Positions 2,300 to 53,970 of a stretch of 64,000 nt of DNA are shown here, piece after piece. The stretch comes from Isurus oxyrinchus (Eukaryota). The stretch's first letter is position 1. The number at the start of each line of letters is the position of its first letter. A model generated the notes under the pieces. The model did no database searches, was not told where the DNA came from, and was given only the letters and a program-made list of their open reading frames with translations. Both the position numbers and the translations under genes were made by a program. The stretch lies in the NCBI GenBank assembly GCA_026770705.1, contig JANJGN010000100.1, forward strand, positions 992,001 through 1,056,000, given 5' to 3'.

Positions 2300-2394
2300 T
2301 CTATACACGGCCCCAGGCTCCAGGGAGATAATTAAATGGCCTGAAACTTTACATTAATTAAATTTAGGTAAAGAAAAACAGATCATTGCAGCTG
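2300..2394 (-). promoter_or_regulatory. Proximal promoter of copy A: TATA-like box, HD + O/E-like composite, E-box
   Basis: TATAGA 2305-2300; TAATTATCTCCCTGGAG 2334-2318; TTAATTA ~2354-2360; CAGCTG 2389-2394. The same layout recurs at all five paralogues. Confidence 0.7.
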
Positions 2395-2779
2395 CTGCTC
2401 AGCTGGTGTTCTGGACTTAATTGCTTGGAATGTTCTTTAATGAGATTTGAAACGAATCTAAAGTGAACCAGCGACATATATATATTGGTTGGATACTGGT
2501 GTTAGGCAAGGCAGTGGTGGTCACTACTGACCACGCTGATAATGGCAAATGTTACTAAGAAAACGTAGAGAAGTTCTCGCTCCTGATTATTGCTCAGCAC
2601 GCGTTGTCACGAATCAGATGCAACCTGTTGTCAACTGCCTTGAGACTATTCACCCGCTTTAACACTACTGTCTGTGTATTAATTGAGGATACATCCAGTT
2701 ACATTCGCTTGTCGTCGGTGTCCATAAGCCCAATTCCTCACGCTTGCATTAAGTGCAAGCTCAGATCTTTTTCATTATG

Positions 2780-3790
2780 TTCATTGTGGACAGGATCAGT
2801 TCATCGTGTGCATTTCCAATATGGAAAACTAAGGTTAAGAGTGGACATGCCTAATTTTCCAAAGGTACATTTGATATCGACATGTCCTGGACAATGTCCG
2901 TAAAGTCAGTGTATACTGCTCTAGTTCGGGTTAATTACATTTTGTTTGTACAGGTTCAGATTGACGTATTCCCATCCAATGTGGACCAGGTTTATTCAAT
3001 GATTTCTGGGCCAGGTCGCATTCAGCATGGAGGAATTCCCTGTGTTCACTAATCTTATCTTCAGTACAGCCTGCTTCAGGAACAGCTCAGCACGATGATA
3101 TCCAGCGAAGAGAGATCCAGTACATAAAAAAATAATTTCATGGTCTGCAAATCATTTCCTCAAGTTAAAGGTAGCGCAGCCTCGAGCATAAGAGTGTTGT
3201 TATATCTATGATGGACAGGGCCACGTCAGGATATTTACAGCTTGGAAAATTTGCAGTTCCGTTCAACATGGTGTCATTCAGTGTGGATTGGTCCAGTTCA
3301 ACATAGAGACATTCAGTGTGGATTGGTTCAGTTCAACATAGAGACATTCATTGTGGACTGGTACAGTTCAGCATGGTGACATTCAGTGTGGACTGGTTCA
3401 GTTCTGCATATTGACATTCAGTGTGGACTGGTTCAGTTCAGCATGGTGATATTGAGTGTGGACTGGTTCAGTTCAGTATGCTGACATTCACTGTGCACTG
3501 TCTCAGATCAGCATGTTGACATTCAGTGTGGGCTGGTTCAGTTCAGCATGTTGACATTCAGTGTAGGCTGGTTCAGTTCAGCATGGTGACATTCAGTGTG
3601 GACTGGTTCAGTTCAGCATGGAAACACATCTTTTTGGCCTGCGTTACACAAGGCATTTTCTTTCTGCTTACACAGGTTCAGTTCTATACAGCACAACTGC
3701 AAAATGACAAAATCCTATTCAGCAGGAATGCCTTCAAATTGAACGGATTCACTTCAGCACGATTACTGGCTTAATGTAGCCGTTCAACTA
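2780..3790. repeat. 35-bp minisatellite upstream of copy A (homogeneous core ~3270-3620, ~10 units; degenerate flanks)
   Basis: Unit GTGACATTCAGTGTGGACTGGTTCAGTTCAGCATG; GTGTGG-like anchors at 3281, 3316, 3351, 3386, 3421, 3456, 3491, 3526, 3561, 3596. Confidence 0.9.
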
Positions 3791-4089
3791 ACAAAGTTAT
3801 ATTTGGTCAGAAATAGTTATATAAAATGCTGGAAAATCTCAGAACGATTCAGTTCCTTTTGCCACAGGCGCTGTCAGATATGCTGTATGTTTCCGAAATG
3901 TTGTATTTTAATTTCTGGTACACAATGCCCTCTGTACATTTCTGTTACGTATAGTGTGCACGGGAGCTTTTCAACAGGTCCCCAGTAATTGGGCATACGA
4001 TTGTATGAACACGAATGTATGACTTTTGCAAAGGCCTTATTCTTTACTGTCCCACTCTGTGCGGACCGTGTCTGGTCAGCGTGCCTCCA

Positions 4090-4390
4090 TGCATTTTGGA
4101 AACACCCCATTCAATCTCTTCCCACCTCAACCTGTTACATGCCTGAAGTCCCCGCCACATGAAAAGTTTCCAGTTTCCTGTCCATATACATTTCCTTTTC
4201 ACTATGGACATGCAGTCTGTCCATCCAACCATCCATCCCCTACCAGGGTAGCTTGACAGATCTTGGTTCATTTCTTGAGATAACTTCCAACTATTTTCAA
4301 TCCTTCACGAGAACACACACCTTCCCTATTTGAATCTGCTGTCACACTGAAAAAAAACTTCTCCTTTCACTCTAGTCACTTCTGTCAAAT
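4090..4390 (-). mobile_element. Degenerate CR1 3' fragment
   Basis: Antisense CR1 3'-end-like wording (tttcctgtccatatacatttcc...ccaaccatcc...ggtagc...cagatc). Confidence 0.4.
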
Positions 4391-4445
4391 AAATATATTG
4401 CTATAGATACACGAATGGATCCTAGTGATATCGGTTGCTTTAATC

Positions 4446-4575
4446 GGAAAGGGTCATGAGGACTCGAAACGTCAACTCTTTTCTCCTCCGCCGATGCTGC
4501 CAGACCTACTGAGTTTTTCCAGGTAATTCTGTTTTTGTTTTAGATTTCCAGCATCCGCAGTTTTCTTTGTTTTCA
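4446..4575 (+). mobile_element. Penelope-like terminal repeat fragment
   Basis: gaaagggtcatgaggactcgaaacgtcaac...gatgctgccagacctactgagtttttccagg...gatttccagcatccgcag; the same element recurs at ~19400, ~23930, ~42940, ~51930, ~60400. Confidence 0.6.
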
Positions 4576-5165
4576 ATGCTTGAAATTTGGTTTGTTTCAT
4601 TCTTCCTCATGTCCCCTCCCTAATCTCCTTCTGCGGCACATTTCTGAGTATATCAGTTCAGTCTCCTGCTCTCAAACGCTGCTCGGGATAGCAGTTAACC
4701 TTATTCCAAATTCCCAACATTCCCAAACCTTGACATTGTCCCCCTCAGTTTTTTCCATTCTTTTCCTTGAATATGCTTGGAGATAAGCTTTCAAATTTCC
4801 CCACTGGTACTCTGACTCCAACAGCACAATTTCCTCGCACACTGCTTCCTATAAATTATGCATTGTATTCTCCGGTTTTTCTGAATCTGCAAAACAACTC
4901 CTCTGAATATTTATCCTTCATACCAATGCTCAGAGAGGGCTTTAATTTCCCTCAGCTGAGGATATCCACACTGTCATGGTTGTGAGAGCAAAAGAGCCTG
5001 CCTGTTCTATTTTCCAACATCCCTTAGCCCTCTAGTAATTATTTTGGGTTTCCCCTACCCTCACACAACCAACCAAAGCATTCAACGTGGAATCCCAATC
5101 CCCTGTCAGGTTCAGGAGGGGCACTTTAATCTGCATCCCTCGCGTTATGATCAACAACTGCAAAA

Positions 5166-5167
<2 letters not shown>

Positions 5168-5204
<37 letters not shown>

Positions 5205-5300
5205 TCTCCCCTTCTCACTGCCACCTCTCCCTTCCCTCTTTCACTCTATCTACCCCCTCCCTCTCTCCCCTCTCTCTCCCCCCCCTCTCTCTCTCCAGGG
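5168..5300. repeat. (CT)n microsatellite / polypyrimidine tract
   Basis: Pure (CT)n 5169-5200 followed by C/T-rich sequence. Confidence 0.95.
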
Positions 5301-5619
5301 AACTGCCCTTTGAGGTGAGGTGAGTGCTTGCCATGGAGCAAAACCTTGCACATGGAGTCTTGCAAGTTGAGAGCCTAAAGCACTGCACCTAACGCTCAGT
5401 TTCAGCTGACGAGGAACTCTTACAATTTAAACACCTGCCTGATATTGAGGGAAGTACACATTTTTTTGAAACAAAGAGATATCGGACCTCCTACGAATGC
5501 AACTGCTGCGTTCATGAAGTCCTGGGGAGGGACTTGAATGTCGAGCGTGTGGCTGAGAGGTAGGAATACTTCCACATGACTTGCATACGACAGCAGCAAC
5601 CTTCCCTATGACCATCTGC

Positions 5620-7160: not shown

Positions 7161-7639
7161 CAGCATGGCAGAGAATGACAAATTAATATGTTATTGGGTA
7201 GGGGATGATTTGTGCTGAGCTAAGGTATGTTGGTTGGACGGCAAAGAAGTTGGGGAAGAAGAAGGGGAAGGAGAAGAAGAAGAAGTGGAAAAAAAATAAA
7301 AGAATGCTTGAGAAAAATGTAAACTGTTCTGCTAACAGGCAGAGGGGAAAATATCTGTTACCGTCACTCTATAAACAGCCAACATACAGTTGCAGTGGTG
7401 AGTGATCTCCTCTTGTTGTAATGACTTTTTAACGCATTGCTTCACCAATCCAATACAGGTGCCTCCTCCCTAGGTACAGGGCCAAACACTAATAATATTC
7501 CGAGCTCATTCTTAACAACACACTGTAGATTCGCATTACCCGAGCTAGGCAACTACCTATGGATAAAGTCACAATTAGCAAGAATATGTTTTAAATGTTG
7601 AGGCCACAATGAATAAAAAAACAATTTCTTGCTCATTAG

Positions 7640-8452
7640 AGAACTGCTCCCTGTACAAATACGAGGTAATGCATTTTGGAAGGTTTAATACAGGCAGGAA
7701 TTATACATTAAATGGCAGAACACTTAAGAGCATTGATGGGCACAGGGATCTGGATGTACAGAGCCACAGGTCACTGAAAGTGGCAACGCAGTTGGATATA
7801 GTAGTCAGGAAGGCATATGGCATGCTTGCCTTCATTGGCAGGGGTGTTGAGTATAAAAGCTGGGAAGTCATGCTGCAGCTGTATAGAACCTTGGTTAGGC
7901 CACACTTGGAATACTGCGTGCATTTCTGGTCGCCACATTACCAGAAGGATATGGAGGCGTTGGAGAGGATGCAGAGGAGGTTTACCAGGATGCTGCCTGG
8001 TCTGGAGGTTATTTGCTACGTGGAGCGTTTGCTGAAACTCGGATTGTTCTCCCTAGAGTGATGGAGATTGAGGGGCGACTTGATAGAAGTTTACAAAATT
8101 ATGAGTGGCATGGACAGGGTAGATAATCAGAAGTTTATTTTCAGGGTTGAAGAGTCAATTACTAGGGGAACAGAGATTTAAGGTGAGAGGAGAAAACCAT
8201 ACAGGAGATGTGTGGGGCAAAGTTTTTTTACGCTGAGGGTGTTGAGTGTCTGGAATTCGCTGCCAGAGAAGGTGGTGGAAGCAGGTACGATAATGATATT
8301 TAAGAGGCAGCTTGACAAATACATGAATAGGATGGGAATAGAAGAATACGGACCCCAGAAATGCAAAATGTTTTAGTTGACGGGCGATATGATCAGCGCA
8401 GGTGTGGTGGCCGAAGGGCCTATTCTTGTGCTGTACTTTTCTTTGTTCTTTG
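7640..8452 (+). mobile_element. CR1 LINE 3' fragment (RT C-terminus + 3' UTR)
   Basis: ORF 7609-8061: EVMHFGR...KAYGMLAFIGRGVEYKSWEVMLQLYRTLVRPHLEYCVHFWSPHY...ALERMQRRFTRMLPGL; ends in a TTCTTTGTTCTTT tail. Confidence 0.93.
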
Positions 8453-13249: not shown

Positions 13250-13432
13250 TATCAATTGTTAAATATTTTAATAATTAGGTTCAGTGGATATTTCACCCCA
13301 TTCTTTAACTCGTCTCTGATTTTACTCTGGGTCCCAGCATAAATAAATGGGTTGAAACAGGAAATCAATAGCTGAAGCATATATACAAATTTCTGGATAA
13401 TGAATGCGACGTTAGTGAAATCAGAATTTGAG
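13250..13432 (-). pseudogene. GPR139-like GPCR copy B, residual 3' end of exon 2 (TM7 + C-tail)
   Basis: Reads ...FIIQKFVYMLQLLISCFNPFIYAGTQSKIRDELKNGVKYPLNLIIKIFKQ; homology stops near 13432, so TM1-TM6 are deleted. Confidence 0.88.
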
Positions 13433-13489
13433 GTATTGGTAACATTGGCGGATATTTTTTATCCCAGTAAACAATTGTTCCCATCCAAC

Positions 13490-15012: not shown

Positions 15013-15082
15013 CTGGAACGCCGATAACTGCAAGGAAGGGTTAGTAAATGACAAACGCCAGACCTTTTGGTGCTGCATGCAT
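15013..15082 (-). pseudogene. GPR139-like GPCR copy B, coding exon 1 with nonsense codon
   Basis: MHAAPKGLAFVIY*PFLAVIGVP; TAA at 15043-15041; GTAAG donor at 15012. Confidence 0.9.
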
Positions 15083-15130: not shown

Positions 15131-15243
15131 CTTATACCTCATGCCAGGCTCTAGAGTAATAATTAGTTGACTTGGTATCTTGCTTAATTAAGTTAAAATA
15201 AACTTCAATTAAAGTTATTGTAACAAACAGATTAGTGCAGCTG
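15131..15243 (-). promoter_or_regulatory. Proximal promoter of copy B (O/E-like half degraded)
   Basis: TATAAG 15136-15131; TAATTATTACTCTAGAG 15165-15149; TTAATTA ~15184-15190; CAGCTG 15238-15243. Confidence 0.6.
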
Positions 15244-15880: not shown

Positions 15881-16530
15881 GCGTGCATATCCAGTTTAGC
15901 AAAGGCACATATGATTTCAATGTCGACTTCACCATCTGTTAGATCAGTACAAAAGTATATATTTCAGAATAGTTACATTCCGTGAGTACAATTTCAGATT
16001 AGCATTGAATATGATCAGATTAATACAAGCGTGCCTCAACACAGCCTGGGCATTCACAGTCAAACTGATTGTGCTCAGGTGCATTTCTCTATTATTTTAT
16101 TCAACACAGCCTGATGCAAGTCAAGTTCGGGAAGTTATATTCAGAATGGCGACATCTAGTTCATCATAGTTAATTTCAGTGTGGACAGAACCAGTTCAAA
16201 AATGTTAAAATCTTTATGGGCTAGAAAGTTCAGGGTTGCTACATCTCGGCAGATAGGGCCAGTTTCGTTAATTTATATTCAGTTATGACAAGTGCCATTT
16301 AGTTCAACATAGTGACAGCCTGTGTGGATTGATTCAGTTCAGTTCAGCATGGATACATGCAGTGTTGACAAGCCCACCAGGAAGCGTTTACACTCATGGT
16401 ACACAGGTCCATTGCTGCACATGTATATTCTGAGTTGACAAGGTGCTATTCAACAAGATTCCTTTCAAAGGGAACACATCCAGCTGAACACCGTTACTGC
16501 TGTAATGGGAAGTCCAAGTCGATTAGTTTT
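15880..16530. repeat. Degenerate 35-bp minisatellite upstream of copy B
   Basis: Units such as ttcagtgtggacagaaccagttca and tgtgtggattgattcagttcagttcagcatgg match the 3270-3620 unit. Confidence 0.7.
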
Positions 16531-19821: not shown

Positions 19822-22800
19822 TGTTAGGAACCATATATAGTTTTAAGTAAGGCATGTTTCTATTTGTTGATGTTAGGAACAAGGCATAGCTTTCAGTTTA
19901 ATTTTTACTTGGGTGTTGAGAAAGGTGAAAGCTGGGTTTGCTTTCATGTTAGAGATTGTTATTGAGATGGAGCCAGGAAGTCTCCAGACCCTGTATGTAC
20001 ACATGCATTTTTTAGTGAGGTTTATGACACTTGAAATGGAGAGCTGCGTTAATAAGCAGTTGGTACTTTAAGGAAGTTGAAACAAACACAAAAAACAGTG
20101 AAATAAATAAAACTGTGCTATTGCCTAGCACCAGGGGATCAGAGTGACGCCCATCGAGAAATGCAGCTATTAGTTCAGCTGGCAGGCATATAACAAAGTG
20201 AAGGCAGGAAATGTCTAAGACTCTCTCTCCAGCAGGGCATGATGCCAGGTTTCTGAGGAAATGATTCGAAGGAGTTGCAACGTATTGCTATAACACTGAA
20301 GTAATTTTCAATTTAAACTGAATTTCGCTGATAATTCAAGGGCGATACCAATCGTGGAAAAAAAAATTGCATGAGCTTTTCGAAGTCTACAAGAAAAGAA
20401 ACCTATTTGCAACTGAACCAGTGTTAGCCTTATTGTGGGAATCATGGTACTGGAATGTTCTGTCCATAAGGTGTATGGCTGGCATAAAAGGGACGGCGTG
20501 ATTTTGGATCTTTTTTCCTTGGGGTTTGTGTTGAAATATTTCCAACATTTTTGTTGTCTAATGTACTTTAGTTAATGTTGCTTGTTTTGAGAATTTTGAA
20601 GCGTTTTGTAAAAACAAATCAACAACAGACTCTTGTGAATCTCTTTTAAAATGTACTTCCCACGATTACAAATATAATTAACATCTATGAGGCCAGATTC
20701 CATTGTTGGATCTGACATGTCGAGTAATAACATCAGTTGGGGTCATAAGATAGCGAGGGCTCTTGCAGAGTTAAAAATTTTTGAATTTATGTGAGATATT
20801 TGAACCCTTAAAGAAACGAGGAAGCTGAGTTACTCTGCATAGAAACAAGATTTGCTGTAAAGTAATGCAAAGTTTGGAGAACAATATTTGCCTTGATTAT
20901 TTCTAATTTCTTATAGGAACAGAAGATGTAACTGTGGATTATTAAACATCCTTTACTAAGATTACACTGAGAGAGTTAGCTCATGAATAGAGTGGAAAAA
21001 GAAAAGCAGCATTTCGTAAAGATGATGTGGTTAAAGACCCTAACCAGCATTTAGAATTAAAATGATTTAGCACAGCACCAGTTAGATAAGATTCATCTAC
21101 AGATGAACAAAAGAGAAAACTTGAATTGGAGGAAAAATAAAAGTGAAAGAGAAATGAGCAGCTTTGAATTAGAAGAAAACGAGAAAGAGAAATGAAAAAC
21201 CTCTAATTAAAGAAATACAGGGAAATTAACAATAAATGAATAAGAAAGAAGGCAAAATGAAAAAAAAAGGAAAGAGCAAGATCAATGGAATTGAAAAAAA
21301 AACTCAAATTAGAAAAGGGAAGAGGAATGGAAATGGAAAACTCTGAATGGAAATAGGAGGGAAAACAGAGATTGAAAAAATGGAAATTCAAAAACTTGAG
21401 CTTGAGTTTCCAAGAGAGGAAGATCTGAGGCAGCATGATTGGATGGTGATAAGGTGTGAATAAAGAAAGAAAGGCTGGATAGCCTTTCATGGGATGATAT
21501 TGATTCCCTTGAGGAATTTGATTTAACTGGAAGTTTTCTGCTCATGCCTAAATTTACAGAGGATTTGGCTAAATGTTATTCCATTCCGTTTGAAAAGGTA
21601 GCAATGAAGTTTAAGTTGCTAGAAGGTATTTGGCGTTTAATGCTATAATATCTCGTGACAGGTACAGCAATGAATGTGTATAATAGTTACTCAAAAGGAC
21701 AATCAGCATACTATGTTGCTGTACATATTGATGAAATGTTTGTGTTAGGCCATACTTTAGAATAACATTTACAAAACTTGAACAAATTGTTTGTTGGATT
21801 ACAAAGAGCCAATTTGGTCATAAGTTTTGCAAAGCGTGAATTTACCAAAACACGAGTGACATATTTGGGCTAAATTGTGCGTCAATGCCAAGTAACACCT
21901 AGACAATCAAAAAATAAGGGCCTTTTTAGATTTTCCAATGTCTAAAGCAATGAGGAGGATTTTGTGTACACAGACAGAATAGATTTATTCGGAATTTCAG
22001 CAGGATTTCAGCACCTTAGGGGATATTCTAACAAGATTGTTGAAGAATTGCAAAATATTTGAATTTCCAGAGGAGTCTCAGAGTGCTTGTGTTAGCTTCA
22101 AAATTGTACTAACTATTGAAATGGTTTTAGCAGCACCAAATTTAACCAAGCCATTTAAACTGGTTCTTCATGCCACCGACATGGATGTTGGTGCAGTTTC
22201 GGCACAGGGGGACGAGATGTGGATCGGTCAGTTACCTCTCTGGAAAGTTAAATTCTGTCATAAGAAATATTCAACTATGGAAAAGGAGAATTTGCGTTTC
22301 ATGTTGGCGCTACAGCACTTTAAAAGCCACAAATTCAGCATATCTGCAGAGGCTTTTACACATATGGACCATAATGCTTTAACCTTTTTACCAAAGTTTC
22401 GTAAGAATCTGACACAATTCTGGCGGGGTTTAGAGCTACAAATATAAAATTTGACAAAACATTCAAGTAGCCGGAAGAGACAATAAAGAACCAGGTGCTT
22501 TAACAACAGCAAATATGGAGGAAGAAGAATATTGTGATCAAATTGTGTTTGCAGTAGTTGATTCTTATGGAAAATATTCATAATTTTTTTGTTAATTCAT
22601 TGCCACAGCTAGAGTAAAATCTGTATAAATAACATGGGATTGGTAATAAGAGCAGGTCATAATGTAAAACGAACATGTTTCTGATTGATACCTTTTCATT
22701 TTTTTGTGGGGAGATGTTAGGAACTAGATATAACTTTTAAGTTTTATATTTGCATAAAACATGTTTAAGAAAGTTGAAACCTCGGCTTCCTTTTACTTTA

Positions 22801-24035: not shown

Positions 24036-24351
24036 AAAATGGAAAATAGGTGAAATATAAGCAGTGGAGATGGATGTTTGAAGGGATAAGGAAGGATAGG
24101 ATCAGAAGCCATTATGTCAGAGGTCACTGAGGATTCTGGAGGAATTGGAGATAAAAGGCAAGAAGATACTGAACTCACGTGGTTATCGTTGAAATTGTGC
24201 AGTCACATTGGGCAAGAGGACACATGGTGAGCTTAGTTAGTTGGACTGTGCGGAACAAAGAGAATATGAGTGACCAAGATCAGATGGAAGGATACTGCTG
24301 TGAGAGATATAAGGGCAGTGGCAATGGAAGAGAATTGGGTGATTACATGGA

Positions 24352-24645
24352 GAGCAAGAAGAAGAATTAATAATGATGATAATAATAATAAGAAAAAGAA
24401 TAATAATAATAAGAAGAACAAGAAGAAGAAGAGCAAGAAGACGGTAATGATGAGGATGATGATGGTGATGATGATGTTGATGCTCAGGATGATGTTGATG
24501 ATAGTGATGCTGATGATGTTGGCGATGTTGATGTGGGTGAGGATAATAATAATGCTGATGATAATAAAGTGTATGAGGATGCTGAATATGATGGTGCTGA
24601 TGATGATTTGGATGACGATACTAAGATGCTGGTAATGAGGATGGA
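24352..24645. repeat. Compound trinucleotide repeat (AAG/AAT/GAT)n
   Basis: Runs of aag, aat and gat triplets; these generate the spurious M/I-rich ORFs. Confidence 0.95.
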
Positions 24646-25879
24646 CACTTAAGGAACATAAAATTACAGGGCTACGGGGATAGAATGGGGAGATTAAACT
24701 AAAGGGATTACTCTGCATAGGTCCAGCATAGACTCGATGGCCGGATTCGCCCCTGTGCATTTTACTGACTTCAGAGAACCCAGTTGCAGCAACGTATGGC
24801 AATTATATCTCTCCCTAGGTAAGGAGACCAAAGCTGAACGGAGTACCGCAAACACATTGTTAACAACACCATACATAAAAGCAGCTTAACGTCCATACTC
24901 TCATTATCCCAGCCGCCCGCAATAAAGTTGCCAAATCCGTTGTTGTAGTTTTAGTGTTTAACAACCTTCACTGAGTAAAAACCACAGACACATAGTCCTC
25001 TTGCATATTTAACCCTCTGTTTCTTTCTGTTACAATTAACATGAAACACAAGAAATATAAATGCAATTCGACACGCCACAATAAATCCTTGTTCATCAGC
25101 GAGCTGAAGACAGAATCAACAGTAATAGATGTAGTTCTTCATCAATATATTAAAACTGAACAAACCTATTGCGCCATTATAATTTTCTAACAGAAGCGTC
25201 AGAGCACGAATCGAGCTAGAAACAATCCTTTGTTGACTGACTAATAGCAGAGGGAGAGTTTTCATCACTCGGGGACATCAAGGAAAGAGAAGAAAAGCGA
25301 GTGAGAAAAACAGAGTTAATGACCCAGACAGAACGACAGTGATCGGCCGAAATGGAGAGGCGCAGGCAGATAAAACAAACATACACCAACTGAGACACAG
25401 AGAGCCAGAGACCAGAAAGTGCAGCTAGATTTCATAATCCCATCCCTTTGTTTATTTATAGTGACTGGCATAAAGCAAGACTACATTTACATAGCGCCGT
25501 TCACTAACTCAGAAATTCAAATTGCTGAACAGACAAGGAAGTAATTTTGAAGTGTAGTTACTTTTCTAATGTAATGATTGAGTTACAGAAAAAATGCGGA
25601 ATTGAAAGGTGCTTAAAGAAGCCTCAGGAGCTATTTGCTATTATGGAATCTAGCTTTCCGTACCATCTCTTTTCCAGATGCAGATCCAGCAGTTGTTATG
25701 ATTTCTTGAATTTTGACATGCTGCTCAATTGCAATTTTATTCGTTTAGTGTTCCCAAAAAGTGTGGCTCAAAGCGTTGGGCCTCTAGACCGTCTTCAACT
25801 AAAAAAATATTAGAAAGTTGTACATTCTCTTTAGGTTCTACAAACATTTCAAGGAGCTCTTTAAGAAGTCATACAATCG

Positions 25880-28624: not shown

Positions 28625-29542
28625 CTACTCTCCAATTTTAACTATTTTAACCAAAATGTTCACTGGATATTTCAGCCCATTCTTTAACTCGGTCCTGAAT
28701 TTACTCTGGGTCCCTGCATAAATAAACGGGTTGGTACAGGAGCTCAATAACTGAAGTATAAATCCTTTTTCCTCAAGAGTAAATGTTCCTTCAGTAGAAG
28801 CGGATCCTGAGAAATAGGTTACTTTCGCAATTTGGACATAGATGATAGATATAAATAAATAGCAAATATAACAAAATGAACCTTCCTGAGATGGCAAAGT
28901 GTAAAACAATTCACTTTCCCCGCTTCTCCATCACTGGGTCACTCTGATTTTCTCCATTGCCCTGGGTACAGAGTCTCCTGCGAGCACTATTGGCCGCTAG
29001 AATGTACCAGGCAGTCAGAGCATTGAGGGGTAAAATCAGAATGAATGGTAGACAAGGGGTTACAATGCAACAAATCCAGTCATTTGCGGCCCATGCTGCC
29101 GACTTGTAAAATATTGCTTTTACGCTGCAGAACCAGGGTATATTTTTAATTGTGTATCTCGGTCCATATATAAAATACAAGAATGCATTTTTTACACAGG
29201 TGAGTGCGGATACGATTCCAATGACCCATGCTACCATCCTCTCGTTGCAATTTTTAATTTTCAGCTCCCTGCCACAAATGGTCACAAATCGATCAAAGGT
29301 GATAGCGACCGTTAAACAGGCAGAATTGTCTGTAGCTGCAAAAATTAGTGCAGAACGGAGACTGCACATTGGTGTGATGGACAGGAAATTGAATAGGAAA
29401 TAAATCCCAGAAATTCGGTTTAATTTTACAGCCGTAACTATGACCAGGAGATCCATCACCGCCATGGACACCATGTAATATGTGATATATCCAGAGAGGC
29501 CGCATCTTCCTCGAGACAGGATCATGATCACTGCCAAGTTAG
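28625..29542 (-). pseudogene. GPR139-like GPCR copy C, exon 2 (nonsense + frameshift)
   Basis: Acceptor tattgcag at 29543; ANLAVIMILSRGRCGLS...MDLL...TFDRFVTIC...PCLPFILILPLN; TGA at 28913-28911 replaces Ser of RKSI; +1 frameshift ~28850; NPFIYAGTQSKFR; stop 28625. Confidence 0.92.
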
Positions 29543-31798: not shown

Positions 31799-31868
31799 CT
31801 GGAACCCCGATAGCTGCAATGGCGGGATAGTAAATGGCAAACAGCAGGCCTTTTGGTACTCCCTGCAT
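31799..31868 (-). pseudogene. GPR139-like GPCR copy C, coding exon 1
   Basis: MQGVPKGLLFAIYYPAIAAIGVP + G|GTAAGG donor at 31798. Confidence 0.9.
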
Positions 31869-31918: not shown

Positions 31919-32002
31919 TTTATACCTGATATCAGGCACCAGGGAGATAATTAGATGGTTTAAAATAACCTTAATTTTGTAAGAAACAAATTAGTCCATC
32001 TG
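31919..32002 (-). promoter_or_regulatory. Proximal promoter of copy C
   Basis: TATAAA 31924-31919; TAATTATCTCCCTGGTG 31953-31937; TTAATT 31971-31976; E-box CATCTG 31997-32002. Confidence 0.7.
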
Positions 32003-32129: not shown

Positions 32130-32420
32130 GCATGCATTTTGGCCAGATCAGCCAATTTCACTAGTGACAGGCCGATTTCATCCTGATTGCATTCCATCTG
32201 CAGTTCAGCACAGTTATATTCGGTATCCATATATCATGTTCATCGTGTGCAAATTCAGCATTAATTGGCCAAGCGCAGCAGGGTCACATCCTGTGTGTGT
32301 GGAAATTCAGTTGATCATGGTTCCATTCAGTATGAACGCGAAGTACTCCAAATCCCATACAGTGTTGGACATTCAGCATGTCAAAGCTACCCTTTTTCGA
32401 TCGTAAAGCATTCAGGCAGT
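32130..32420. repeat. Degenerate 35-bp minisatellite upstream of copy C (truncated by CR1)
   Basis: cagttcagcacagttatattcggt, ttccattcagtatgaac, cagtgttggacattcagcatg. Confidence 0.55.
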
Positions 32421-32429
32421 AACGATTCC

Positions 32430-35400
32430 ATGCTGGGAGATTCGAAATCCGATCTCCCCCTTAACTGGTGTAGGTGCTAACCACGATAATAACGTGGAAC
32501 TAACTAGGTTATCCAACCAACCGATGTTATGCCTCTAGTATGTGAGCGAAGGGAGTTGACATGTCTTTTGCTTCTGTATACTGATTTGTTCATCATTTTC
32601 AAGCCAGCCAAATGTACAAGTCTCTGCCTGTTAGTACACAACCTGTCAATTGACAAATCCTTCCTGTTGCTGCTCGTAACGACACATGGGAACTTGTGGC
32701 CCATGGCTAAAGGGTCGGAGGAATTTGAAGGAGATATGACTCTAGGATGGCATGTTACTTCCCTGGTGCCAGGATCAAGGATATCTCAGATTGGCTGTAA
32801 GACATTCTTCGGCGGGAGATTGGTAGGGGAGGGGTGGTGGAGAGGGGGGAGGGGTGGTGCTGTGGTGACAGAGGCCCTGGTCCACATTGGTACCAATTGC
32901 TTAGGTAGGAAGGGGATGTGGTCCATCAATCAGAATTAAGGGAGATAGGTAGAAAATTAGCAAACAGGACTTCAAATGTACTAATCTCTGCATTACTCCC
33001 AGTGGCCCATGTCTCTGAGCACAGAAATAGGAGGATAGGGTACATGAATATATGGCTGGAAAGATGGTGCAGGAGGGAAGGCTTTCGAATGTTGGGCACT
33101 GGGGCTGGCTCTCGGGGCGATCGATCTGTAGAAGCTGCACAGGTAACATCTGTACAGAATTGGGACTGAGTTCCATCCGGGGCGTTTCGCTAGTGCAGCT
33201 CGGACTGTGCAGGAACCAGGAGAGGATTTTAGAGAGGTACACAAAATACTGGGAAGGATCGTTAGTTCTAGAATGGAGAATAGTAAGTTAATGGGTGGAT
33301 TTGGGATGAGGGAGAAAGTAAAATTTAAATCAGGGTTACTATGCTTTTATGTGAATACACAGAGCATAGTAAATAAAACTGAGGAGTTTCAGGTGTAAAC
33401 CGCCATGTGGAAAAACAATGTCGTGGCGATAACAAAGAACTTGCTCAAGGAAGAGCAGAACAAGGTGCTAAATATTCCCAGGTAGAAGGTGTTCAGAAAA
33501 GATAGGAATGAAAGAAACGAGGAGGGACGGTGGCATTGGTTAAGGAGGGAATTGCAGTACCAGAGAAAGAGGGTGACCCAGAGGGTTCAAGAACTGAATC
33601 AAGTTGGCTAGAGCTAAGGAAGAATTACATTGCTCGTTCTGGTCTTTCTACTGCTAACTACTGGGAAGGATGTAGAAGAATAAACCTGCTGGAACATTGC
33701 AGGGAAATACAAGCATGAAAGAGCAGTTATAGTGGGGGACTTTAATTATCACGTATGAAGATGTTGGGAGAATGGATGTGTAAAGGGTGGAGAGGGGGAT
33801 AAGTTCTTATATTATGTTCAGATTTTTTTTCCAGAGCAATTAGTATCCAATCCATCAACAAAAAGATGCAACGTTGGACCTGGTTCTGGACCTGGAAATG
33901 AAGTTTTCCAAGTTGATCAAGTGTCAGTTGGGAAATATTTAGAAGAGAGTGACCATTGTATTGTACACTTTAGGATAATTTTAGACACGACTGATAGGTA
34001 ATTCAGAGTAAGAATAATTAACTTGACAACAGCCAACATCAATGCAGCAAGAATAGACATGAGCCGGATAGACTGGAATGAAAGATTGACGGGAATATCT
34101 GTAGCTGAACAATGGATTACCTTAAAAAACGAATTGCTTCGTGCACAGTCATGGTACATTCCATCGAAAGAGAAAGGTGGACAAAACAAATCCAGATTTC
34201 CCTGGGTGAGAAAGGAGATAGAATTTAAGATAAAGAAGAAAAGATGTGCTTGTGACAGGTGCCAGGCAAAAATTACAATTGAGAACCAAGAGGAATACAG
34301 AAGGTTCAGAGGGGAGGTGATAAATGGATATTAGAGAAGGGAACATGGATTATGAAAAACGACTGTCAGCGAACCTAAAGGGGAATCCCAAAGTCATAAG
34401 AATAGTAGAAGGGTTGTGAAGGGAGGAGTATAAGTAATTAGTAAAAGATAATTTACACTTGGACGAAGGGGCTATTGCTGAGGTACTAAATGAATACATT
34501 GTATCCATCTTTACCAAGGAGGTAGATGCTACCCAGGTCATGGTGACAGAAGAGGAAACTCTGTCACTAGACTAGTAGGGTTCAAAGTTGATAAGGAGGA
34601 GATGTTGAATAGACTGTCAGTACATAAAGTTGACAAGAGACTGGACCAGACATGGTACATCCAAGGATATTGAAGGAAGTGAGGGTAGAAATTGCAGGGG
34701 CATTTTCAATACATTTTCAATCCTTCTGGGACTCAGCGGAAGCGCCAGGGGACTGCAAAATTGCCAACATTACGCTCTGTTTCAAACAGTTTTCAGGATA
34801 AGCCCAACAATTACAGACCAGTCAGTTTAACTTTAGTGGTGTGCAAGATTTTAGAAACAATTATTCGTGATAGAATTAGTAGTTACTTGGAAAGATGTGG
34901 ATTGGCAAAGAAGAACAATATGTATTTCTAAAGGGAAATTCGCATTTAACTAACTTGCTGGAGTTTCCTAAAGAGCTAACAGAAATAGTCAAAGAGGGTA
35001 AAACTATTGATTTGGTGAACATGGGCTTTGAAAAGTTATTTGATGCAGTACCACACAACTGACTTGTGACAAAAGTTATTGCTCATTGAATAAAAAGAAC
35101 CGTGGCAACATGAATACAAAATCTGATGCAAAGTAAGAAACAGAGCTTAATGGTCAATGGATACTTTTCGGGCTGTGGGATGGTTCTTAGTAGAGTCCTC
35201 AGCGGTCGGACTTGGAGCTCTTGTTTTTCCTGATATATATTAATGATCTCGATCTTGGTTGTAGGTGAGAATTTCAAAGTTGGTGGATGATATGACGCGT
35301 GGGAATGTCGCAAACTGCGAGGAGAGTGTAGGTCTTCAGAAGGTCAAAGACAAGTTGGTGGAGTGGGCAGGCAGGTGGCAGATGAAATCCAATATGGAGA

Positions 35401-36200
35401 AGTGTGAGGTGACGCGTTTTAGTCGGAGGAAAATGGACAGGCAATGTAAAATAAGGGGTGAAATTTTGAAGGAAGTGCAGGGATCAGAACGAACTGCATG
35501 TATATGCACTTAGTTCATTGAAGGTGGCAGGACAGGGAGAGGGAGCAGACAACGAAGTGCACAATTACCTGGGCTTTATTACCAAGATCATATAGTACAA
35601 TAGCAGGGAGGATATGCTGAATTTATGCAAGACACTCGTTAGATCTCAGCTGGGGTATTGTGCACAGTTGTGGGCGCGACATTGTAGGGAGGATGTGAAT
35701 GCATTGGAGACGTTGCAGAAGAAGTTCACAGGAAAATTCCCAGGGATGAGAAACTTCAGCTGTGAGGATATATTGGAGAGGTTGCTACTCTTCTCCTTGG
35801 AAGGCAGAAGACTAAGAGAAGATTTGATAGAAGTTTTCAAAATGATGAGGGAAGTGGACAAAGTAGACGGGGAGAAGCTGCTCCCACTCGTAAAAGGTGC
35901 AAGAATGAGAGGGCAGAGATTTAAAGTGATTTGCAAAATAAGTAAATGTGACTCGAGAAAACCTTTATCATACAATGAGTATTTCAGGTCTCGAATGCAC
36001 TGCCTGGAACTGTGATCGACGCAGGTTCAATCAAAACATTTAAGAGGGCGTTAGATGATTATTTAAGTAGAAAAAATGTGCAGGGGTGCAGGGCAAAGGC
36101 AGAACAATAACACTAGGCCATAATGCTAATTTGGAGAGCCAGTGCAGACACAATGGGCCGAATGGACTTCTTCAGCGCCATTAGATGTAGTGATTCTGTG
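32430..36200 (+). mobile_element. Near full-length decayed CR1 LINE (ORF1 esterase, ORF2 endonuclease + RT)
   Basis: ORF1 SGNH-esterase motifs (PGARI-like, VHIGTN, MNIWLERWCRREGFR); ORF2 YVNTQSIVNK, GDFN, NYRPVSLTLVVCKILE, KLVDD, LCKTLVRSQLGYCAQLW; 3' tail gtgattctgtgat. Many stops and frameshifts. Confidence 0.92.
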
Positions 36201-40891: not shown

Positions 40892-41801
40892 TTATTGTTG
40901 AGTAAATTTTACAATAAGAATCCATGGATATTTCAGCGCATTCTTTAACTGGTCTCTGAAATTACTCTGGGTGCCTGCATAAATAAACGGGTTTATACAA
41001 GAACTCAAAAGCTGAAGCATTATTCCGATTTCCTCCAGGACAAAATTTAGTCCATTGACACCAGAACCAGAAAAATACGTGACCCCCGCAATTCTGACAT
41101 AGAGACAATTAATTAGAAGCCAAATCCACAACAGGACGAAGTTTCCTGAGATACAAAAGAGCAAGGCGATGGACTTCCTCCGGTTCTCCATCTGTGGGTC
41201 GCTCTGATTCTCTCCATCTCTCTGCGTCCGGAGCCTCCTGCGGCTCTATTAGCCACTAGAATGTATCTGACAGTCCGAGCGTTGAGCAGTAAAATCAGAG
41301 TGAATGCGAGGCAAGGCATTAAAATGTGGAGAATCAGGTCATATGTGGTCCATGCAGGTGATGTATAAAATGTTCCTTTTACGCTGCAGAACCAGGGGGT
41401 ATTGTTAATTGTGTGCAGGGGCTCATATATAAAATACAGAAAGGAAGATTTGAAGCAGTTCACTACACAAACCGCACCTATAACATACGTCGCCATCTTC
41501 TCAGTGCAATATTTGACTTGGCGCTTCCGGCAGCAGATAGCCACAAATCGATCAAAGGTAAAAGCGATCGTTAACCAGGCGGAAGTGCCGAAAGCTACAG
41601 TGTTTAGCACGACACGAAGGCTGCATAAAGGTGTGATGGACAAAAAACTGTCTCGGAAATAGATGCCAACAATCCTGTTTAAGATCACGCTGGTAATAAT
41701 AACTAGGAGATCCGCCATTGCCATGGCCACCAGGTAGCGAGTGATGCACTTGGAAAGACCACACCTTCCTCTGGAAAGAATAGCAATAGCCACCAAGTTA
41801 G
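40892..41801 (-). CDS. GPR139-like class A GPCR copy D, exon 2 (single 1-nt frameshift at ~41242)
   Basis: Acceptor gttccag at 41802; ANLVAIAILSRGRCGLSKCITRYLVAMAMADLL...TFDRFVAICC...PCLAFTLILLLN...; GCC(C)GC lacks one C; then RRRLRTQRDGENQSDPQMENRRKSIALLF...LQLLSSCINPFIYAGTQSNFR...; stop 40892. Restoring one base gives a 326-aa 7TM protein with exon 1. Confidence 0.9.
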
Positions 41802-44126: not shown

Positions 44127-44196
44127 CTGGAATCCCGATAGCTGCGAGGACAGGATAGTAAATGGCAAAGACCAGGCCTTTTGGTGTTCCATGCAT
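44127..44196 (-). CDS. GPR139-like GPCR copy D, coding exon 1
   Basis: MHGTPKGLVFAIYYPVLAAIGIP + G|GTAAAT donor at 44126; intact. Confidence 0.9.
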
Positions 44197-44247: not shown

Positions 44248-44340
44248 TTTATGCCTAACGTAAGGCTCCAGGGAGATAATTAGATGCATTGTTTCTTTTT
44301 ATTAATTGGACTGATTGAAACAACTAGTTAAGTCCAGCTG
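44248..44340 (-). promoter_or_regulatory. Proximal promoter of copy D
   Basis: CATAAA 44253-44248; TAATTATCTCCCTGGAG 44282-44266; ATTAATTGG 44301-44309; CAGCTG 44335-44340. Confidence 0.7.
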
Positions 44341-44669: not shown

Positions 44670-45180
44670 GCTTTAAAATTGCGATGTTTAATTCAGTTCG
44701 GTTATATTTAATGCGGACAGAACGAGTTTGATCTCACGGTAGTGAAATTGTTCAGTTCGCCATTGGCATATTTCTCCTGTATAGCACCCGGTCAGCAAAT
44801 TTGTATTCAGTGATGACAAGCCCACTTCAGTTCACAGCAGTGATATTCAGCGTGTCCCGGCCCAGTTCAGCGCGGTTATATTCTTTTGCCATGGCCCAGT
44901 TCAGCACCGTCGCACTCATGGTGTCCTGCTCCAGTACAGCGCGGCTATATTCAGTTTGGATTGCTCCATTTCAGCTCGGTTACATTCAGTGTTGACAAAT
45001 CCAGATGAAAATGGTTCTAATCATGTTGCACAGGTTCAATTCAGTGTGGGTACATTCCGTCTGTGCAGTTCCAGATACACACACTGAAATTCTGTGTTGA
45101 AATATTCTATTCAGTACCTATACTTTCAGCATGGACAGGCCCAGTTCAACACCGCTACTGCCAGAATGGCTGGTTCCACG
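44670..45180. repeat. Degenerate 35-bp minisatellite upstream of copy D
   Basis: gatattcagcgtgtcccggcccagttcagcgcgg, tattcagtttggattgctccatttcagc, ttcagcatggacaggcccagttcaac. Confidence 0.7.
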
Positions 45181-50995: not shown

Positions 50996-51499
50996 CCTGT
51001 TCCAAATTCGTATTTTCATATGTTCATAAATGAAATGAGACACACGTGGGGAGAAAGGGTTGGTTATATCCTTTGTTTGTATTTGACATTAATTATTGAT
51101 TTACTTTGTTATAGGCTAAATTGTTATCTCATTTAGGCGGGTGGTCTCAGGGAAGCATATTGGCTTGAGGTGATGGTAGGCAGGAATTCGTCGGCCTTGT
51201 GTACACCTGTGGCGCTGCTTTGTGCTTACATCTCATTTCACTTATGGGCAATGACCCTTTTTGGGGGTGCTGATAGCTTGCAGTGACATAGCAAAGGCCC
51301 AAAATAGGACGATGTTTTCCACAGTTGTCTTCCACAGTTTTGGCATGAGATGTGTCTGTGCGCAAGATTCCCGCGTCTCCCTGTCACCATTTGCATTTGT
51401 CCCTTGTCTTCAGCTTCCGGTTTTGCTGGGTTCTATACCTCGTCCACTGATTTCTCCTCCATATCATCATCTGTAGATGGGCCTGATCCGTGAGATCCT

Positions 51500-52900
51500 T
51501 CTCTGTTAAGGCTTCTCCTCTCTGGAATTCCAGTTTATGCGGGCAAGGCAGACGGTGACATTCACCAGCTCACAATGAACATAACATGCTGAATGGAACT
51601 TTCCTATCCAACTAACCTGGACCGATGCAAAATACCTTGAAACATGCACAGTTGGGTCTGTCTCCACTCGACGTAATTTTGAAGCAAACAGTACAAAACA
51701 CAACCATGCTGAACAGGAAGTTTGCCCACTAGATGCAAAGAAGTACAACGATACCATTGCAAACTCAATGTAGCCGGGCATGGCATGTTCACACATAAGA
51801 GAATTCAAGTGGACTACTACATACCAAAGGCTACTGTTCAGAGACTGACCTGTGCATCTGGAATATAGCCTTCTTGATCTAGTTATTTACACACTGAATA
51901 TAGCCATACCAAATGAATTATTATGAGAAACAAAATGTTGGAAATACACATCAGGCCAGTTAGCATCTGTGGAGAGAAACTGATTTGACGTTTCACTTTC
52001 ATTATTGTTCATCAGAGTTTCAAAAATGTGAAATGTAAAACGTTTAAATGATTTTTTTAGGCAGACAAAGGGTGGGAGTGGGGAGGAAACATCAAAATGG
52101 AAATTATGTGATGGAGTGGAAGGAATGGGGTGTTATTAACAAAGTGGATGGTGCATAAAAATGCTAAAGGAGGTGGTAATGTTCAAATTATTCCCAGACT
52201 ACTTCGTTTCAAAAGGAACAACAAGTTAGTCGATCATTTCTTACAAATGACTTCCCTGTCAGGAAGACCAATTGAAACCAGTTTTCCAGAATTATCTTAA
52301 AATTACTTTGGCCAGGCATTCCTCAAAATTGCAGGCTTTCTGAGGCTTACAGAGTTTATCGCATTGCTGAAGAAGACCTTCTCAAATTAAGCCATGGCTT
52401 TCGGGAACTCGATCTGTGCAGGCTGAACGTGACTGTGCTAAACTGAAACTGCATGCACCGAATATGGTCCCTGAATGCTAGTCTTGGTAGGGCTGGGTGC
52501 AATCATGTTGAACTAATTTGAAATTTTTAACACTGTAAATTAATTAACTTGACTGGTGCAGTCCACCTGAAATTTTACCATGATGAACGGGATGAGTCCA
52601 CAATGACTTTACAGTTGCAGAACAGCGTTTAACGTGCTGAGTTGGACTTTTCTGCCCTGACTATAAAACCCGTGTACTGAACTCTATTTGTCAGAATTGA
52701 AGATAAATTGGAATTGTCCATACTGATTTTAAACATGCTGAAATGGTCCAGCCCCTGAATGCACGAAACACTGCTGTAATGAACCACTACATAATGAATG
52801 TATCCGCAAATATTTAAGATTGTACACGCAAAATCTATTTATGCTGACCTTAACCAGCTTGCAATGACCTTTAACAGGGCGAGCAAGACCGGCCGTCAAG
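51500..52900. repeat. Degenerate 35-bp minisatellite upstream of copy E (inverted), split by a Penelope-like fragment
   Basis: Reverse-complement units: catgctgaacagg, cagtccacctgaaa, catgatgaacgggatgagtccacaatg, catgctgaaatggtccagcccctgaatg. Confidence 0.6.
51928..52020 (-). mobile_element. Penelope-like repeat with CTGATGA...GAAACGTC core
   Basis: Reverse strand ctctgatgaacaataatgaaagtgaaacgtcaaatcagtttctctccacagatgct. Confidence 0.55.
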
Positions 52901-53284
52901 AATGCAACGATGTTGAACGACTTATCGTCACACCAAATTTACATGTGTTGAAGTGAGTGGGATTACCAGCAACTGTGACTGTGCACGTACAGTATATAAG
53001 CAGTGAGTTGGAAAAGACCGTACTGAAAAAGATAATGAAAAACTGGTCAGTGAACGCCGAAAATAATGCTAATTTAATGGATCTGCCTATAGTGAGTCCA
53101 AAAACAGTTGTGCTACAGTGTGTGCACTGTCTCAGAGACGTTTGGAACCACGTTGTGCTAACCCATGTTCACAAAGACTGAATATTAACCAGGATGGAGA
53201 AGTATGGCTGCGTTTTCTGTTAGGTGAAGGATACCGCTGATCAGTTTTACCTTCACCTGAAACAAAGTTTCTTTCTTTATCCTT

Positions 53285-53660
53285 TCATCAGTTGCTGGCG
53301 CCCCTAGCAAGGCCAGAATTTGTTGCTCATCCTTAATTGCCCTTGATATCTTCGCCTTTCTCGTAAAATGAGAGGGCAATAAAGAATCAACCTCGGTGTT
53401 GTGGATCTGGAGGCACATGTCGGCTCAGGGTGGCGGGTTTCGTTCCCTCGAAGGAAGTCATTAGCGAACCAGGAAGTATTTCATAACTATAGATCATAGC
53501 TTTAAAGTCGCCAGTGCCTGTGAATAGCTTTCAATGCCAGATTTTATTAATTGAATTCAAATTTCAACATCTATCATCAGGGTTTTGTATCCCATATCGA
53601 CACGATACTGGCCCGGGCCTCTTTTTTACTAGTGCAGGGGCATTTCCTAATCCCACTGCC
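53285..53660 (-). mobile_element. SINE (HE1-like)
   Basis: gctggcgcccctagcaaggccagaatttgttgctcatccttaattgcccttga is the reverse complement of the HE1/HER1 tail. Confidence 0.6.
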
Positions 53661-53874
53661 TCACCCTCAGCTTTGAGAGGTTCAGGACTTGAGTTCCTCC
53701 TGTTTAACGCCCAATTTCACTGTTGCAGGCGTCCATTTCCATTTTCGTTACATTTTAGAAAATAAAACGGTCATCAGAATTGCGCTGCTGTCCCGGAGAA
53801 TTTCAATTAGAGCCGTGTGAGATACCTTGAAAAAAACATTGGATTCTATCAAAGCATAAACAAGGGTCCGACAG

Positions 53875-53970
53875 CAGCTCAAAAAATCTGTTTGTTTAAT
53901 TTAGCGTAATAAATGTTAAAAAAATGCAAATCATGTCATCATCTCCATGGAGCTTGACAATGAATATAAA
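53875..53970 (+). promoter_or_regulatory. Proximal promoter of copy E (degraded)
   Basis: CAGCTC 53875-53880; TTAATT ~53896; TCATCATCTCCATGGAG 53936-53952; TATAAA 53965-53970. Confidence 0.6.

Follow-up and report, generated by a model that had tools for sequence, protein, structure and literature searches.

The locus described here raises the question whether much of the shark odorant repertoire has gone unnoticed, and with it that of the age and portability of the Lhx2/Ebf code. In cartilaginous fishes the olfactory organs are large and the known receptors few: 6-13 OR, 3-5 TAAR, 2-4 V1R and 8-43 V2R genes (PMC10116579). The candidate family considered here is labelled by best hit only. The window, by which we mean the whole 64,000-nt stretch analysed, comes from an elasmobranch and contains five broken genes, each of two exons, that belong to an expanded 'probable GPR139'-like class A GPCR family; they are here called copies A to E. 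Rfam scanning of the window gave 0 matches. The coding parts are as follows.

2179..2248, minus strand: copy A, coding exon 1 (70 nt, GT donor)
1..75, minus strand: copy A, beginning of exon 2 without its first five codons, remainder beyond the window
15013..15082, minus strand: copy B, exon 1, stop at codon 14
13264..13449, minus strand: copy B, exon 2 remnant, family residues 262-323 only
31799..31868, minus strand: copy C, coding exon 1
28625..29542, minus strand: copy C, exon 2, 7TM GPCR, stop near 28911 and frameshift near 28856
44127..44196, minus strand: copy D, coding exon 1
40892..41801, minus strand: copy D, exon 2, 7TM GPCR, one frameshift only, of 1 nt within a C run near 41243, which could be an assembly error
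54021..54090, plus strand: copy E, exon 1, start codon ATT
58692..59600 (end approximate), plus strand: copy E, exon 2, three stops and two frameshifts

Concerning the identity of these genes, the first-pass annotation had called them a non-OR GPCR family, and the protein evidence agrees. Pfam detects 7tm_1 only, in all three window pieces and in the relatives P0001, P0128 and P0058 (E up to 0.1); 7tm_4, the OR family, was not found in the same sequences at that threshold. The closest solved structure by sequence is of the GPR139/GPR142 type (E 2.6e-10). A protein search returned 1072 hits; among those listed, 120 of 120 belong to sharks or rays, and 60 of them come from one horn shark, which has at least 60 distinct proteins of this kind. 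The window genes are 59-70% identical to the 120 hits listed and share their short exon-1 N-terminus, and C, D and E reach 66-67% identity to P0001 over 302 codons. In 122 full-length members, entropy at pocket positions is 1.64 bits as compared to 0.98 overall and 0.25 on the intracellular side, a variability measured on top hits only and in a receptor class whose extracellular halves are generally more variable. The family is large, dynamic and pseudogene-rich with a variable ligand pocket, features that fit chemoreceptors. Orthology to GPR139 was rejected, the family being multi-copy and its match to human GPR139 reaching only 43.7 bits; true GPR139 exists as a single copy and keeps 70% identity between human and zebrafish (PMC7318219). 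A literature search covering few subscription papers found none on a shark GPR139-like family or its promoter. The white shark genome paper (Marra 2019) reportedly may list additional GPR139-like genes, in which case the expansion would be less novel.

The promoter analysis is based on the five window copies and on peptide read-throughs of relatives. In front of each copy, on the strand and at the place given by the first-pass annotation, lies a 17-mer that joins a homeodomain site to an O/E-like site.

2318..2334, minus strand: copy A, homeodomain (TAATTA) plus O/E-like 17-mer, intact
2300..2305, minus strand: copy A, TATA-like box TATAGA, Inr-like A 30 nt downstream, at 2275
2389..2405, minus strand: copy A, two CAGCTG E-boxes, that at 2394-2389 being the one common to B, C and D
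15149..15165, minus strand: copy B, motif with four changes, all in the O/E half, TAATTA intact
15131..15136, minus strand: copy B, TATA-like box, Inr-like A 28 nt downstream
15238..15243, minus strand: copy B, E-box CAGCTG
31937..31953, minus strand: copy C, motif with one change
31919..31924, minus strand: copy C, TATAAA, Inr-like A 29 nt downstream
31997..32002, minus strand: copy C, E-box CAGATG
44266..44282, minus strand: copy D, motif, intact
44248..44253, minus strand: copy D, TATA-like box CATAAA
44335..44340, minus strand: copy D, E-box CAGCTG
53936..53952, plus strand: copy E, motif with three changes, two of them in the homeodomain half
53965..53970, plus strand: copy E, TATAAA
53790..53809, minus strand: second TAATTG plus O/E-like site with a 3-nt gap, about 130 nt upstream of the E motif

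The motif is identical in A and D, and TAATTA is intact in four of five copies. In all five a TATA-like hexamer (TATAGA, TATAAG, TATAAA, CATAAA, TATAAA) starts exactly 12 nt past the motif, as had been noted. The ATG said to follow 54-57 nt from the TATA start has these distances (57, 54, 56, 57 and 56 nt), but in copy E the codon is ATT. The O/E-like and homeodomain sites lie near the TATA box and the inferred start site, as in OR-type promoters. The further upstream words are present as described: an E-box in four of five copies (none in E), at -49 to -78 and therefore at no fixed position, and TAATT or AATTA in five of five at variable offsets. Words of the TAATT kind are common here, TAATTR alone occurring 149 times in the window. 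The additional TAATTG site is found in copy E only, whose own motif is degraded. A promoter HMM finds five sites and no sixth copy within the window. Searching the motif pattern with up to three mismatches, which leaves out copy B with its four, gave 4 matches against 0.16 expected, and none of 100 shuffles reached 4; this excess reflects paralogy, not function. The fixed 12-nt spacing was dropped as independent evidence, since it is unremarkable alone (P of no indel 0.38 for the 12 nt, 0.06 for motif, spacer and TATA together).

Further upstream, a 35-bp repeat was newly noticed before all five promoters.

2759..3640, minus strand: upstream of A, array with CTGAA core, homogeneous part 3256-3621
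15957..16371, minus strand: upstream of B, degenerate units
32198..32339, minus strand: upstream of C, degenerate units
44686..45068, minus strand: upstream of D, degenerate array
52414..52748, plus strand: upstream of E, degenerate units

Does the 17-mer stand out from the DNA around it? In the five-copy promoter alignment it ranks 1st of 211 17-column windows, with an identity of 0.81 over all five copies (0.96 for A, C and D) as compared to 0.51 in the adjacent spacer. The expectation that it would exceed flanking paralogous DNA is thereby confirmed, and no other non-coding block in the five paralogous promoters is as well conserved. Intron 1 lies at 0.50-0.53, coding exon 1 at 0.82 and four-fold sites at 0.52-0.72 (25/47, 18/25, 12/23); the neutral level is about 0.5-0.6. 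A max-window test gives P 0.0001 upon resampling of intron columns. Upon permutation of promoter columns it gives P 0.097 for five copies, 0.010 without B and 0.0017 for A, C and D, leaving out B and E from the conservation tests being a post hoc choice. Significance for five copies varies with the baseline: most choices give P 0.0002-0.1; a neutral identity of 0.60 gives 0.055 and one of 0.65 gives 0.32.

An intact gene of another shark bears on the same point. The Heterodontus francisci (horn shark) model P0128 is 61-62% identical to C and D and translates its promoter in frame, with the same seven residues as A and D over the motif. The order is motif peptide, four codons and TATA codons, 57 nt before the start, and the spacer peptide matches C at three of four residues; motif, spacer and TATA are retained before an intact gene. 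A second read-through model, P0167, has TATA codons at the same distance and does not keep the motif peptide; it may have been spliced at the motif position. Among 315 proteins examined, 132 had a recognisable exon-1 start and 10 any upstream extension; five of the 10 had at least 28 residues, two of these with TATA codons and one with the motif peptide. A search with the P0128 extension (residues 5-62) returned P0128 itself only (one hit of two candidates). In a FastTree phylogeny of partial sequences, D falls outside (support 0.80) a clade of 83 members that includes C, E and P0128 as well as genes from several shark orders, therefore the element is old.

Common descent or conversion between tandem paralogues, combined with post hoc choice of the best window, could in principle produce such a block without special constraint. 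The whole promoter aligns at about 0.60, the five-copy permutation value is 0.097, the P0128 spacer resembles C as well, and homogenisation by conversion has been proposed for V1R promoters (PMC1955453). We regard this as very unlikely: A and D are identical over 20 nt yet diverged in the adjacent spacer, whose last 9 nt show an identity of 0.37 (A, C, D), neutral simulation gives P <=0.0016 for these three copies, and the same peptide occurs in another species. Fainter still is the prospect that the block is no factor-binding site but the splicing signal of a non-coding exon further upstream, made up of branch point, pyrimidine tract and AG acceptor. CTAAT, a brief stretch of pyrimidines and a closing AG are all there, and P0167 may join exactly at the motif; but GAG is a poor acceptor, the branch A would lie too near, only 15 nt away, copy C has no AG, and TATA and Inr-like sites come next at their canonical distances. 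The 17-20 bp block was, with high confidence, under purifying selection while the genes functioned.

The first-pass annotation had also held that the state of the motif tracks gene damage. This is true of the ranking of D (one lesion, no motif change), C (two and one), E (six and three) and B (a stop and loss of most of exon 2, four changes). Copy A departs from it, its motif being perfect though its exon 2 lacks the first five codons. After pseudogenisation the motif would decay.

Which factors could read the block? A and D match the O/E consensus TCCCyngrgar, as given in Table 1 of PMC3247239, at eight of ten specified bases beside TAATTA. The best register lies 0 or 2 nt from TAATTA; at 1 nt only 5/10 consensus bases agree, while the pyrimidine/purine pattern at 1-bp spacing fits in both copies. 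TAATTR within 0-3 nt of an O/E match occurs at five window sites as compared to 1.2 expected, and three of them are A, C and D. Perfect TCCCNNGGGA or YTCCCYRGGGAR consensus sites number 0 in the window. A published 17-position degenerate composite pattern (methods of PMC11643329) fits A-D in register with one mismatch, position 7 being T where a purine is wanted. Its sites in the window number 136, 1350 and 5600 at 0, 1 and 2 mismatches; at about 23 per kb with at most one mismatch the fit says little, and the pattern was rejected as strong evidence. The first-pass annotation had taken the homeodomain and O/E composite for a hallmark of OR promoters as well as enhancers, which for promoters is at odds with PMC12547500 and PMC11643329, where the side-by-side composite is enriched in OR enhancers and depleted from OR promoters. 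An Lhx2/Ebf-type reading of the motif is plausible.

One long-site factor, for example a zinc-finger protein, or some other pair might instead bind the constrained element, its Lhx2/Ebf likeness being coincidental. An ambiguous and imperfect O/E register would suit this; however, a homeodomain site adjoining an O/E-like site is expected about once per 50 kb and yet coincides with the top-ranked window, which makes coincidence distinctly improbable. Blood or immune factors come slightly closer and are still unlikely: GATA on the overlapping AGATAA together with the E-box, or the B-cell pairing of Ebf1 and E2A, the family then being leukocyte or epithelial receptors. The GATA word is perfect in A, C and D and lost in B and E, four of five copies have the E-box, and expanded GPCR clusters also occur in immune cells. 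The word spans only 6 of about 20 conserved bases, though, with conservation extending to both sides; WGATAR occurs 156 times in the window; and the E-box lies 50-80 nt away at variable distance, as opposed to the roughly 9 nt of GATA-TAL spacing.

Returning to homeodomain and Ebf factors, we propose that the five sites are paralogous proximal promoters of five broken genes from an elasmobranch-expanded, GPR139/GPR142-related class A family. Their layout, read from the sequence with an inferred start site, would be E-box, TAATTA joined to the O/E-like site, 12 nt, TATA and an Inr-like site 28-30 nt later, with a 5' UTR of about 27 nt. Some 45-60 bp ahead of the start, TAATTA would be bound by a LIM-homeodomain or Emx protein and the half beside it by an Ebf/COE dimer; together with a proneural bHLH on the E-box they would recruit TBP at the TATA box, a scheme towards which we lean slightly. 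The nearest characterised relatives sense aromatic amino acids, GPR139 and GPR142 responding to L-Trp and L-Phe (PMC7318219). Such a factor code, a clustered birth-and-death family, a variable pocket and amino-acid-sensing relatives would together point, tentatively, to expression in olfactory or related chemosensory neurons. Against the olfactory reading counts that catshark olfactory neurons are apparently all microvillous (PMC10116579), the composite being documented for mouse OR and TAAR enhancers (PMC5608512, PMC7804114 and PMC8213717). The 50 top genes of a catshark brain-plus-olfactory library include no GPCR, which is uninformative for sparsely expressed genes. That these are Lhx2/Ebf-type chemosensory-neuron promoters and the genes candidate receptors for waterborne odorants is a tentative view, a little short of an even chance.

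Homeodomain and Ebf factors may also act here in cells that are not olfactory, such as neurons of the brain or elsewhere, sensory cells of ampullary or lateral-line organs, taste cells, solitary chemosensory cells or endocrine cells of the gut. GPR139 is restricted to the brain, and GPR142 is a receptor of pancreas and intestine (PMC7318219); Lhx2 and Ebf also bind together at thousands of sites beyond the OR clusters (n = 3805; PMC5608512), and the microvillous shark neurons agree with a non-olfactory setting. Yet a family grown to at least 60 proteins in a single species, with numerous pseudogenes and a pocket that varies, shows the pattern regarded in PMC10116579 as an olfactory hallmark, and we give non-olfactory cells a minor share of the probability. 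More speculative than the chemosensory reading as such, though a serious possibility, is a fifth olfactory receptor family in sharks and rays, derived from the GPR139/142 lineage of amino-acid sensors, larger than the V2R repertoire and with an independent recruitment of the Lhx2/Ebf code, through an enhancer-type composite seated in the TATA promoter of every gene. If true, the shark nose would no longer be just a few dozen V2Rs, and the composite grammar would date to the base of jawed vertebrates.

Among known systems, vertebrate GPR139/GPR142 provide the solved structure nearest by sequence and the origin of the NCBI name, and share the two-exon gene with the shark family. The shark family is far more distant, massively expanded and pocket-variable, therefore the NCBI name 'GPR139' is a best-hit label. 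The shark V2R/OlfC repertoire is likewise dynamic in copy number and rich in pseudogenes across cartilaginous fish, but is class C with proven sparse olfactory expression, whereas the window family is class A; PMC10116579 treats four receptor families, the window family not among them. Mammalian OR proximal promoters (PMC3247239, PMC12547500) also carry O/E-like and homeodomain sites within 100 bp of the TATA box, in AT-rich context and in a clustered multigene family; there the two kinds of site stand apart at varying positions and the composite is depleted, whereas the shark sites are fused, positionally fixed and followed by a coding first exon. The Greek Island composite of mouse OR, class I J element and TAAR enhancers (PMC5608512, PMC7804114, PMC8213717) differs in its register (1 nt as compared to 0 or 2 nt in the shark, with T at position 7) and in serving intergenic enhancers; the shark motif occurs once per gene in the gene's own core promoter, 12 nt from the TATA-like box, before non-OR genes. 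Both have TAATTR beside a pyrimidine-then-purine O/E-like half over 17 nt, A-D fit the published pattern with one mismatch, and the TCTCC core is common with the Sfaktiria EMSA probe.

Five paralogous TATA promoters (copies A to E), each with a conserved block made of a homeodomain site and an O/E (EBF)-like half, stand before genes of an expanded G protein-coupled receptor (GPCR) family other than the olfactory receptors (ORs). The 17-nt motif was located in all five copies where the first-pass annotation had placed it. Downstream of each promoter come a coding exon 1 of 70 nt and a long exon 2 whose product is a rhodopsin-class seven-transmembrane (7TM) protein; as assembled, all five genes are broken:

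2334-2318, minus strand: motif of A; first five codons of exon 2 lost, remainder of exon 2 beyond the window
15165-15149, minus strand: motif of B; stop in exon 1, residues 24-261 lost
31953-31937, minus strand: motif of C; stop and frameshift
44282-44266, minus strand: motif of D; one frameshift
53936-53952, plus strand: motif of E; no ATG, three stops, two frameshifts

The sole lesion of D, one nucleotide missing from a run of C near 41243, may be an assembly error, and D possibly is an intact gene. An HMM built from the five promoters revealed no sixth copy in the window.

As annotated, a TATA-like box lies 12 nt downstream of the motif in five of five copies. The distance of 54-57 nt from TATA start to ATG is correct throughout, except that the codon in E is ATT. 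An E-box in four of five copies was borne out (-49 to -78), and the further upstream TAATT was recovered as TAATT or AATTA in every copy, at varying offsets. BBCABW is the initiator consensus. A word of this kind occurs in A, B and C (3/5), its A located 28-30 nt past the TATA start; D and E carry an altered word at that position. In A, B and C the word suits a genuine core promoter, whose 5' UTR would measure about 27 nt. The 12-nt spacer resembles a palindromic word of CRE type that has decayed (TGATATCA in C, 31927-31934; TTACGTTA in D, 44256-44263), and the family protein model P0167 would be compatible with TGACGT there, yet the spacer is the least conserved part in the window copies. The octamer ATGCAAAT (53924-53931, plus strand) lies a short way upstream of the motif, in E alone.

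All five promoters have, 0.25-1.5 kb upstream and in gene-sense orientation, a tandem repeat of degenerate 35-bp units whose core is CTGAA:

2759-3640, minus strand: repeat upstream of A, recently homogenised
15957-16371, minus strand: repeat upstream of B
32198-32339, minus strand: repeat upstream of C
44686-45068, minus strand: repeat upstream of D
52414-52748, plus strand: repeat upstream of E

All 31 matches of the repeat matrix fall inside the five upstream regions, 21 of them outside the training array, and the repeat remains where adjoining DNA is no longer alignable. Since it precedes every promoter, the duplication unit measures at least 1.5 kb. ORF fragments between the genes (7579-8061, 34002-34334, 35596-36015, 21983-22447) look by eye like remnants of LINE (CR1-type) and LTR reverse transcriptases, and low-complexity ATG/TAA trinucleotide repeats at 24233-24802 give spurious His-, Ile- and Met-rich ORFs.

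The motif is better conserved than flanking paralogous DNA, the comparison proposed in the first-pass annotation: mean pairwise identity among the five copies is 0.81, versus 0.51 in the adjoining spacer and 0.55 in the 20 nt upstream. It amounts to 0.61 in the 5' region past the TATA box, 0.82 in exon 1, 0.50-0.53 in intron 1 and 0.90 across the 8 nt of the E-box block; within A, C and D the motif reaches 0.96. Among 211 windows of the five-copy promoter alignment the motif ranks top, and the maximum-window statistic against intron columns gives P 0.0001. Permuted promoter columns give P 0.097 for five copies, 0.010 for four (without B) and 0.0017 for A, C and D, the two subsets having been picked after data inspection. 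Neutral identity at four-fold sites is 25/47, 18/25 and 12/23; star-tree simulation of five copies yields P 0.0002, 0.003, 0.055 and 0.32 at baselines 0.50, 0.55, 0.60 and 0.65. For A, C and D its P does not exceed 0.0016. From these ranks, permutations and simulations, on few and partly decayed copies, the motif is likely under constraint; absence of constraint, to which the five-copy permutation and the highest baseline leave some room, is quite improbable. The fixed 12-nt spacing carries little further weight (P 0.38, or 0.06 when the 35-nt block is taken whole).

TAATTA is intact in four of five copies. The O/E consensus TCCCyngrgar (PMC3247239 Table 1) matches A and D at 8/10 when started 0 or 2 nt past TAATTA, the latter being the register of the annotated YYYCARRRR, and at 5/10 when started at 1 nt. 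TAATTR within 0-3 nt of an 8/10 O/E match occurs at five sites in the 64 kb (40 Markov-resampled windows: mean 1.2, maximum 5):

the motifs of A, C and D
one site 130 nt upstream of the motif of E
one site in the intron of E

The site upstream of the degraded motif of E (TAATTG plus O/E-like, 53790-53809, minus strand) may have arisen by chance or turnover, or be a second site that was already ancestral. Our main argument is that a putative homeodomain plus O/E-like site coincides with the top-ranked conserved window. On this basis we lean slightly towards binding of Lhx2/Emx and Ebf at the motif, with bHLH input; binding of some other factor is a minor alternative. A GATA or B-cell code is hardly more probable: a GATA word overlaps the motif in A, C and D, but explains only 6 of about 20 conserved bases.

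Independent support for the motif comes from the horn shark, Heterodontus francisci. The 44-residue N-terminal extension of NCBI model P0128 is the promoter read in frame: seven residues over the motif identical to A and D, four spacer codons, then TATAAA codons 57 nt before the normal start (tblastn against the C promoter, E 1e-9). The peptide determines about 10 of 17 motif bases, third positions being free. By this read-through, an intact gene of H. francisci carries the motif in front of it (61-62% protein identity). On the other side, the motif peptide is present in only one of five models with extensions of at least 28 residues, and a dedicated search found no further read-through examples. 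P0167 keeps the TATA codons and has no motif peptide, being either spliced at that point or devoid of the motif; that the motif itself is a splice signal is very improbable. In a quick tree of 135 sequences, the window copies being partial, D falls outside an 83-member clade (support 0.80) containing C, E, P0128 and genes of several orders.

The 7TM proteins match Pfam 7tm_1 alone. Exon 2 of D retrieves 1072 proteins at E <= 0.001; among the matches listed, 120/120 belong to sharks and rays and mostly bear the name 'probable G-protein coupled receptor 139'; H. francisci supplies 60/120, most of them on one 59-Mb contig. A full-length member retrieves 2184 matches at E <= 1e-10. The closest solved structure, human GPR139, scores only 43.7 bits, whereas true GPR139 is 70% identical between human and zebrafish (PMC7318219), so the family is a separate expanded lineage. 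Many NCBI models in P0121-P0165 lack the 70-nt exon 1 or have unrelated sequence spliced in, and names there are inconsistent (capa, FMRFamide, sex peptide, GPR15, TRH receptor-like). These faults may have concealed how large the family is.

Filters on length and start reduced 165 named matches to 122 full-length members, whose mean identity is 0.68. Numbered via motif anchors, with TM6 approximate, these members show an entropy of 1.64 bits at 18 pocket positions and 0.25 bits at 22 intracellular ones, against 0.98 overall; in TM3, 5 and 6 the extracellular halves vary about three times as much as the cytoplasmic ones. The variable pocket, clustering, copy number and pseudogenes, taken together, match the pattern that PMC10116579 names a hallmark of olfactory families. 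Expression in olfactory neurons is predicted at a little under even chances; the same factors acting in other neurons or endocrine cells would be an unlikely, though the foremost, alternative. PMC10116579 covers OR, TAAR, V1R and V2R only, and describes catshark olfactory sensory neurons as all microvillous. PMC6504862, in the part consulted, notes GPR139/142-related orphans in bony fish and no sharks, GPR139 goes unmentioned in the consulted parts of PMC11979771, and no description of the family in sharks appeared in the literature searched. The family may be an olfactory receptor family that has been overlooked in sharks, an idea open to a cheap test.

In the mouse composite, 1 bp separates the two halves (PMC11643329), and pyrimidine/purine runs may be loose (PMC5608512). 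A and D fit our own strict pattern TAATTR-N-Y4-N2-R4 (4 occurrences in the window), and A-D fit the published, very permissive 17-position pattern with one mismatch. In the relevant parts of PMC11643329 and PMC12547500 the composite is reported for enhancers, not promoters, so a per-gene, TATA-proximal composite would be a new arrangement.
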